Of a DNA stretch of 64,000 bases, positions 45,307-46,283 are shown one piece after another (the first letter of the stretch is position 1; each line of letters begins with the position of its first letter). Source of the DNA: Escherichia coli (GTDB lineage: Bacteria > Pseudomonadota > Gammaproteobacteria > Enterobacterales > Enterobacteriaceae); NCBI RefSeq assembly GCF_051903065.1, contig NZ_CP178438.1; one strand, written 5' to 3'. The notes beneath the pieces were generated by a model. That model saw only the letters and a list, made by a program, of their open reading frames with translations, was not told the DNA's origin and ran no database searches. The position numbers and the translations under genes were made by a program.

Positions 45307-45980
45307 CCATTTAGCAAGGAATAATAAGAGAGGGAACTCATTTTGAAATCATTATTCAATCGGTTAACGGGAAAAGCGGTTAGCCGGACAGCTTTCGTCG
45401 AACACCTTGGTCATGAAGTTGTACAACATCATCCAAACTGGAAAGTCATGATTTCGACTGACCATAAATTGATGCGCATTGATACTCCACTAAACAGCTA
45501 TTATTGATACGCCTCCGTCGCCTGTTAGGTTTATGGTGCTTTGCCTGGGCGACGCTACGCTTAACCTGTTACTGATTTCTGGTACCATGGGGTGAATAAT
45601 CTGATTTTATTTGGCTACAAATTAACCACTCGAACCTATTTAATGCTGAGCATTGTCAGTCGGTTAATTTTGCGTGCTTTAGCATTCACATCTATCCAGA
45701 CGATGCAGTGAAAATTGGGTAATCCCCAGCAACCGCTGCGTAATGTCGTCTATCTTGTCGCGATCCTGGCATCCCTACATTATTTGTGGTCTGTGAAGAT
45801 TATCTCATTGCAGCCCCTCATCTTCGCAGGGCTGGCTTTACAGCTTTTCACCTTACGTTATAAGAAGTTCCGTCGATGATGGCGCTAATTTCGTGAATTG
45901 TGCGGCTTGTTGCAAATTACACGGTGTTGAAGGTTATTTACATGTTAGCTGTTGATTATCTTCCCTGATAAGACCAGTAT

Positions 45981-46012
45981 TTAGCTGCCAATTGCTACGA
46001 AATCGTTATAAT
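45981..46012 (+). promoter_or_regulatory. Candidate sigma70 promoter for accBC (TATAAT at 46007-46012), implying a leader of roughly 270 nt
   Basis: Perfect -10 hexamer; possible -35 elements (ttagct / ttgcta) at non-ideal spacing. accBC is known to have a long leader. Confidence 0.3.
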
Positions 46013-46283
46013 GTGCGACCTCGTCCTCCCTGACGCAGTTTTTGCGCTGCGGAAAAGGTGACATTGGCGCAACGAAGGTATATTTTGTTTTTTGCCGGAG
46101 GATAGCAGCAGATCGCTGCACAATGTCCGTCAAGTCTAACATTGACACTCTGGGGCAAAATAGACCGGCGTCCCGGCCTGCTGGAATTTATCGCTATGCA
46201 TACAGCTGTCGGGGCATACGCTTTACAGACGGCGGTGAAACGCCTGTCACAATCACACTAAACAAAGAGTACGGAACCCACTC

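Follow-up and report, generated by a model that had tools for sequence, protein, structure and literature searches.

The 977 nt gap between acuI and accB of Escherichia coli (positions 45307–46283 of the window, by which we mean the whole 64,000 nt stretch of contig NZ_CP178438.1 that was analyzed) is very probably a gene graveyard, with the remains of yrdF, of msrP/msrQ and of aroQ, followed by the live promoter and leader of the accBC operon; the short open reading frames (ORFs) of the gap would then be debris. The evidence consists of homologies and lesions, synteny with related genomes, a contrast in polymorphism, a mapped transcription start site (TSS) and read-through transcription from acuI. 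The finding is ordinary and largely already known, comprising two annotated pseudogene stumps, a known promoter and a third gene relic that is not annotated. An earlier examination of the letters of this DNA, made without database searches (the sequence-only reading), had described the interval as devoid of annotated genes and had proposed that its short, partly hydrophobic ORFs could be small proteins, leader peptides or nothing. The last of these three options is the closest, since the ORFs are pieces of two dead genes, namely the stump of yrdF and transmembrane segments of msrQ cut by a frameshift and a nonsense codon.

The gap starts after the stop codon of acuI (TAA, 45304–45306) and ends before the ATG of accB at position 46284, with csrD further upstream and accC downstream; the features of the gap and the two genes bordering it are on the plus strand. 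It was found in 5425 of 5426 complete E. coli genomes with 95–100% identity, and its alignment with K-12 MG1655 is free of indels, with 98.6% identity, so that K-12 coordinates equal those of the window plus 3359152. The reference annotation of K-12 MG1655 includes pseudogenes yrdF (b4697) and yrdE (b4646) at exactly these positions, and both are listed as pseudogenes in a published strain table. The position immediately 3' of yrdE serves the Bernhardt laboratory as a neutral site for markers. The absence of annotated genes thus holds for most E. coli genomes annotated with the Prokaryotic Genome Annotation Pipeline (PGAP), but not for K-12 MG1655. Compared to yrdE and yrdF from K-12, the window shows the same locus and boundaries and no structural difference, although it carries a rarer 'yrdE haplotype. 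A six-frame ORF list agreed with the sequence-only reading in that no ORF of at least 60 aa occurs in the gap, the sole exception being an out-of-frame, TTG-initiated ORF of 89 aa (46042–46311) that overlaps the start of accB.

The largest relic, 'yrdE (45486–45879), corresponds to codons ~67–196 of an msrQ gene (yedZ-type), that is, to its 3' two-thirds. Using tblastn, amino acids 69–95 of K-12 MsrQ matched positions 45492–45572 and amino acids 101–195 matched 45589–45873, in separate frames and with a joint E-value of 8e-41; conversely, a database search with 'yrdE retrieved MsrQ/YedZ proteins with E-values of 1e-42 to 1e-54, and the PGAP annotation of some genomes has it as a YedZ/cytochrome b pseudogene. 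The homology to MsrQ (YedZ), the haem-binding membrane partner of MsrP, a periplasmic methionine sulfoxide reductase (Pfam Ferric_reduct, PF01794), thus extends over residues 69–195. The relic also sits where an intact msrQ stands in Citrobacter, Klebsiella, Kosakonia, Atlantibacter and Yokenella, whereas in E. coli the functional copy belongs to the hiuH-msrPQ operon, at another locus. Unlike functional MsrQ, 'yrdE lacks the N-terminus and the accompanying msrP gene: the first 66–68 codons are missing, a complete frame of ~199–211 codons does not occur, and tblastn of K-12 MsrP against positions 45200–46400 gave no match better than E 1.4, the partner gene being absent there.

Nucleotide alignment with intact msrQ genes revealed further lesions in what remains. 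There is a +1 frameshift within 45573–45588, an in-frame TGA at 45709–45711 where intact msrQ has CGA (Arg141), and a change from TGG to TGA at 45877–45879 that removes the last three codons. Residues His91, His151 and His164 are the cofactor ligands of MsrQ, and we confirmed a histidine at these three positions in the K-12 protein; their counterparts in 'yrdE are CGC (45558–45560), CGT (45739–45741) and CAT (45778–45780), so that two of the three are now arginine and only His164 is kept. As judged from these lesions, 'yrdE is incapable of making MsrQ. It combines a syntenic, intact homolog in relatives with disabling lesions and a neutral-like pattern of evolution, as is expected of a pseudogene.

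The alignments also account for the hydrophobic short ORFs, which are transmembrane helices of MsrQ read in broken frames; their hydrophobicity is due to this origin in a membrane cytochrome. The ORF of 22 codons highlighted by the sequence-only reading exists, although displaced by one nucleotide (45643–45711 instead of 45642–45710), and corresponds to MsrQ residues 119–140, while a TTG-initiated ORF of 54 codons at 45715–45879 corresponds to residues 143–196. With 22–54 codons, these ORFs do fall within the size range of small membrane proteins known from E. coli, and one could imagine that such proteins were carved out of the dead gene. However, neither the ATG at 45643 nor the TTG at 45715 is preceded by a Shine-Dalgarno (SD) sequence, which agrees with the earlier remark that ribosome-binding sites were not obvious, as far as it concerns the ORFs inside 45500–45880. 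Moreover, in E. albertii the first ORF has lost its ATG and is shifted in frame and the second is cut to 'MG*', the segment is more polymorphic (7.4%) than synonymous sites of the flanking genes (~5%), and no operon defined by SMRT-Cappable-seq covers b4646. A Pfam search with five short or odd ORFs found nothing in the hydrophobic ones, and nothing overall beyond a sub-threshold match to DUF2759, the pieces being too short for domain models; it was tblastn with whole MsrQ that identified them. There is thus hardly any chance that 45500–45880 encodes functional small membrane proteins. Among the short ORFs of the gap, none joins a conserved frame and start to a ribosome-binding site, and the only SD sequence is found at yrdF', the stump of a larger gene. 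The sequence-only reading had made its proposal depend on transcription or translation over 45307–45980 and on conservation of the short ORFs at the amino-acid level. Transcription does exist over yrdF', which is covered by read-through from acuI, but the ORFs are not kept as ORFs in E. albertii. The hydrophobic ORFs are therefore best seen as fragments of an annotated msrQ pseudogene and not as undiscovered small proteins.

The other annotated stump, yrdF' (45343–45485), contains a native SD sequence (GAGGG, 45330–45334) and, beginning with the TTG start codon, the first 47 codons of a DUF1444-like gene for a 276-aa protein. An intact version of 276 aa lies directly after acuI in strain 1332KP, and the window matches it through codon 47, at position 45485, with 98.9% nucleotide identity, diverging thereafter; the frame runs on through seven unrelated codons to a stop at 45507, resulting in an ORF of 54 codons, and the full-length frame does not occur in the window. 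This is the second ORF pointed out previously, whose existence was correct but whose limits were 45343–45507 (54 codons plus stop) instead of 45342–45509; contrary to the first impression, a ribosome-binding site precedes its TTG by 8 nt. We had also considered this ORF as a relic of the C-terminus of MsrP, which was wrong, because it is the 5' end of yrdF. The intact gene is present in 667–670 of 5426 E. coli genomes (~12%) and also in E. albertii, and its product shows weak, sub-threshold, yet full-length matches to Pfam DUF1444 and NCBIfam PRK13668. A scan of contigs with YrdF retrieved only E. albertii, the exact-peptide seeding being too strict to reach other genera. A homolog 63% identical to intact YrdF was found in a Logan contig (ERR11172932, locus L007:3898–4731) in a plasmid-like or mobile context, adjoined by KfrA_N, Aca2/YdiL and ResIII-fragment genes, and on this account yrdF may have been acquired horizontally, coming to lie between acuI and msrP.

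SMRT-Cappable-seq extends the RegulonDB operon b3253 to b3253|b4697, indicating that the acuI transcript reads into yrdF'. Since in K-12 the 54-codon ORF is co-transcribed with acuI, retains its native SD sequence (with a spacing of 8 nt) and TTG start, is open in the four allele-A genomes checked (the allele of the window, see below) and is annotated by PGAP as a hypothetical protein in some genomes, a truncated protein with a kept or gained function could be envisaged. We consider this very unlikely: the ORF retains just 17% of the parent protein, followed by a random tail of seven residues, the four genomes differ by the replacements H24Q, V27I and T47A and by tails PLNSYY and PPNSHY, and the stump is not universal, as ~12% of E. 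coli genomes contain the full gene instead.

Comparison of window positions 45486–45586 with loci L002:2680–3535 and L006:6144–6998 revealed two deletion alleles. Allele A, from the window and K-12 and present in ~4750 genomes (roughly 88%), keeps msrQ codons ~67–100 and has lost yrdF from codon 48 onward; allele B, from ~670 genomes (roughly 12%) and also from E. albertii, has all of yrdF, ~40 degraded codons from the 5' end of msrP, and msrQ only from about codon 100. The B alleles from E. coli and E. albertii share the same deletion junction and, with 91.2% identity, are as diverged as the flanks (89.5%). Neither of the E. coli alleles is derivable from the other, and the two of them require an old polymorphism that outlasted the species split, or else an old interspecies transfer. 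The coexistence of incompatible deletion alleles, one of them common to E. albertii, is a small population-genetic puzzle. We also evaluated, and rejected, a recent gene conversion from msrQ of the hiuH locus as the source of the 101 bp specific to allele A; with 84% identity to K-12 msrQ and 81.5% to that of Citrobacter, these nucleotides just belong to a conserved portion of msrQ.

Downstream of 'yrdE, the remainder of the gap is of a different nature. The sequence-only reading had noted a TATAAT hexamer at 46007–46012, a position that is exact, and had associated it with the long accBC leader, in agreement with our results. A promoter scan identified a −35-like CTGCCA (45985–45990) and TATAAT separated by 16 nt (45985–46012), and two SMRT-Cappable-seq tables for MG1655 contain a primary transcript from NC_000913.3:3405172 to 3407308/3407310, covering b3255|b3256 (accB, accC). 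This places the accBC TSS at position 46020 of the window, 8 nt 3' of TATAAT, with a leader of 264 nt. The region thus shows the elements of a sigma-70 promoter, with a −10, a −35 at 16 nt (16–18 nt being expected) and a mapped 5' end 8 nt downstream (6–9 nt being expected). The accBC promoter and leader known for E. coli (Li and Cronan, 1993) likewise consist of a single promoter far upstream of accB, followed by a long untranslated leader; the TSS and the 264 nt given here derive from SMRT-Cappable-seq.

The promoter belongs to a block of 69 nt (45951–46019) that includes about 35 nt of further invariant sequence upstream of the CTGCCA element. For the region from msrQ to accB we used an alignment set counted as seven genera (E. 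coli, E. albertii, Citrobacter, Yokenella, Klebsiella, Atlantibacter and Kosakonia), and the block is 96–100% identical to E. coli in the other six, a conservation that goes far beyond the needs of a sigma-70 promoter. Wherever aroQ is intact, the block lies upstream of it, which indicates that it is the promoter of an ancestral aroQ-accBC operon. The block contains TTATC-N6-GATAA (45956–45971), a palindrome that may well have occurred by chance; a palindrome search using 6-nt seeds did not report its arms, which are of 5 bp. It also contains an ACCAGT stretch that may resemble a FadR box. The accBC operon has been reported to be autoregulated by AccB (James and Cronan, 2004) and promoted by FadR. 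Between this block and 'yrdE there are 71 nt (45880–45950) that, according to the alignments, comprise the former 3' end of msrQ, with its original stop codon (TAA, 45886–45888), and the former msrQ-aroQ spacer; their identity to E. coli in the rest of the set is 30–89%, and 30–59% outside Escherichia.

The leader itself (46020–46283, 264 nt) aligns with aroQ, the gene for a type II 3-dehydroquinase (PF01220, DHquinase_II) that precedes accB in other genera, and is, according to these alignments, the shell of this gene. Using tblastn, the last 15 codons of AroQ were recognized in the window, with 14 of 15 residues identical to AroQ from Kosakonia (E 2e-6). From 5' to 3', and with identities to E. 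coli in the other six members of the set, the leader is composed of a 5' hairpin region (46020–46057, 34–74%), the aroQ 5' untranslated region (UTR; 46058–46122, 66–97%), the aroQ ATG plus seven codons (46123–46143, 52–95%), poorly alignable scraps with ~300 nt missing (46144–46213, 30–97%), the last 15 aroQ codons plus TAA (46214–46261, 88–98%), and the aroQ-accB spacer with the ribosome-binding region of accB (46262–46283, 95–100%). The missing ~300 nt are present in Klebsiella, Kosakonia and Atlantibacter. The frame of ~150 codons expected for AroQ does not occur, as only the seven codons from the start region and the last 15 are recognizable, and they are in different frames. E. coli therefore shares with the aroQ-accB-accC cluster the promoter block, the 5' UTR, the position of the start codon, the last 15 codons and the 22-nt spacer; conversely, this shell, with a broken frame and now serving as the accBC leader, is all that is left of aroQ in E. 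coli, E. albertii and Citrobacter enshiensis. The unusual length of the accBC leader thus has a simple historical explanation. The relic is not annotated in the K-12 or PGAP records checked, and there was no mention of it in the literature searched, whose coverage is incomplete; it is thus a small footnote, possibly new.

A hairpin is predicted at 46034–46051, ~15 nt into the transcript, and at the same place in all seven genera, with differing stems (CGCAG/CUGCG in E. coli, CAGGG/CCCUG in Yokenella, GCCC/GGGC in Atlantibacter, and also CAGUG/CGCUG); in these predictions, the differences are compensatory-looking. Conservation of the leader suggests a regulatory function. Because the leader is frozen in 5425 genomes, its hairpin recurs in seven genera, and a relic ORF that terminates shortly after the accB start has remained open in both E. 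coli and E. albertii, the leader could be an exapted regulatory RNA, possibly a cis element for autoregulation by AccB or for control of acetyl-CoA carboxylase by a small RNA (OmrA), although we regard this as unlikely. The fold of the whole leader is no better than that of shuffled sequences, with a non-significant z of −1.16.

The ORF in question extends for 62 codons from the relic aroQ ATG to a stop 28 nt within accB (46123–46311), constituting the 3' part of the out-of-frame ORF of 89 aa; it is probably not translated. The idea that it is an upstream ORF tuning accB translation draws on its geometry, with a stop just past the accB start that would be able to couple or occlude initiation, on the invariance of the whole leader in the E. 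coli genomes, and on its open frame in E. coli and in E. albertii, in which a 1-nt deletion and a 1-nt insertion cancel each other. It is nonetheless unlikely, since the SD sequence of aroQ has been destroyed (GGAG to GCAG) and the ORF spans just nine codons in Citrobacter, which has the same relic; the unremarkable fold of the leader (z, as above) does not favor it either. The shell of aroQ described above is still useful, because its surviving parts mark where to look for cis elements of accBC: the 69-nt block, the 5' hairpin, and the final ~70 nt of the leader.

Sequence variation within the gap was not evenly distributed. We counted segregating sites among four allele-A genomes and estimated species-wide identity with 5425 E. 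coli genomes. In 'yrdE, 29 of 394 sites segregate (7.4%), and in yrdF' 5 of 143, three of which are amino-acid replacements; for comparison, segregating third codon positions amount to 4.9% in acuI, 5.3% in accC and 1.3% in accB. Conversely, none of the 404 sites from 45880 to 46283 segregates (Fisher p = 3.6e-7 against the pooled third positions of acuI, accB and accC). Likewise, the latter region shows at least 99% identity in 5425 of 5425 genomes, whereas 'yrdE reaches at least 99% identity to the window in only 10 of 5425 and falls below 95% in 150. This double contrast, in segregating sites and in species-wide identity, shows that the pseudogene stumps drift and that the promoter and leader are constrained.

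The same data bear on whether the pseudogene DNA (45343–45879) is retained because it holds upstream regulatory sites for accBC. The interval is found in essentially all E. coli genomes, as this idea would predict, but it is highly polymorphic and is partly replaced by different DNA in ~12% of the genomes. Additionally, a kan cassette inserted in K-12 at 45920/45921, between the pseudogene DNA and the promoter, resulted in growth rate and cell dimensions as in the wild type (bioRxiv 10.1101/359208). Such a function is thus extremely improbable.

Comparison of gene order among enterobacteria allows us to propose how the gap originated. In Citrobacter enshiensis the order csrD-acuI-msrP-msrQ-accB-accC is intact, and a metagenomic locus (L014) has the same order; Klebsiella aerogenes, Atlantibacter hermannii and Kosakonia show msrP-msrQ-aroQ-accB-accC, with the aroQ stop codon 22 nt before the accB ATG, and Yokenella has a longer aroQ relic. 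A relative with an acuI 85% identical to that of the window shows acuI-yrdF-msrP. The working msrPQ of E. coli is in the hiuH operon, beside hprRS. The msrQ relic shows a nucleotide identity of 77–78% to msrQ from this hiuH locus, versus 62–69% to msrQ from other genera at the orthologous site, and its TGA (45709–45711) is common to both E. coli alleles and to E. albertii.

From these data, the ancestral enterobacterial order would have been acuI-msrP-msrQ-aroQ-accB-accC, to which the Escherichia lineage would have added yrdF, between acuI and msrP. The relic being closer to the copy from the hiuH locus argues for a duplication within the Escherichia lineage, by which the hiuH operon, adjacent to hprRS, would have gained a second msrPQ copy, with the original one decaying afterwards. 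The shared TGA suggests that a nonsense mutation had already inactivated the original msrQ when E. coli and E. albertii diverged. Within the lineage that led to the window, one deletion from yrdF codon 48 to msrQ codon ~67 would then have removed all of msrP, leaving the stumps yrdF' and 'yrdE to drift neutrally. The aroQ gene would have been lost through internal deletions of ~300 nt, keeping its promoter, its 5' UTR, its start codon region and its last ~70 nt, which would now drive and initiate accBC expression. The product of aroQ, a type II dehydroquinase, is redundant with the type I enzyme of E. coli, AroD, and this redundancy was probably the cause of its loss; the order of all these events is likewise a reconstruction. 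At the least, the relic indicates that E. coli once had msrPQ between acuI and accB, as the other sampled enterobacterial genera still do. In Salmonella, msrPQ corresponds to STM3377–3378 and is regulated by Cpx rather than by HprRS, and a relocated, working msrPQ beside hprRS fits the published regulation of msrP by HprRS in E. coli and by Cpx in Salmonella.

Several points weigh against this account or parts of it. The order of duplication and decay is based on ~300 aligned nt of decayed sequence. A single event does not account for the deletion history, which must be more complicated, given that the two E. coli alleles are not derivable from each other. The 54-codon ORF of yrdF', having a native SD sequence and start and being transcribed with acuI, could be translated. 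Positions 45880–45950 are invariant in E. coli in spite of their low identity outside Escherichia (30–59%), and part of the low diversity of the region may be due to linkage to accB instead of to site-by-site constraint. Lastly, the 1993 primer extension by Li and Cronan reportedly yielded a distance of ~300 nt, somewhat unlike 264 nt.

A metagenomic contig of 958 bp with a coverage of 0.84x (ENA ERZ4561097, L012/P0013) contained an apparently intact MsrQ of 196 aa that looked like a close relative of yrdE (81% identity). While the 3' half matches the yrdE relic of E. coli with 100% identity, the 5' half is divergent and resembles another genus; it is a probable chimeric assembly and was not used. 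An Rfam scan of 45200–46400 gave a single match, to family Ysr190, which was rejected (25.3 bits versus a gathering score of 66, E 0.23).

Both genes bordering the gap are intact. Upstream, acuI (yhdH; 44332–45306) is an ORF of 324 aa that is annotated in K-12 and other genomes; downstream, accB (46284–46754) is an ORF of 156 aa annotated in all the genomes examined. Beyond accC, the neighborhood differs between E. coli strains: in ATCC 25922 (L001:5400–5977) accC is followed by a frameshifted pseudogene of the aldose 1-epimerase family, on the minus strand, whereas K-12 and the window have yhdT-panF there.

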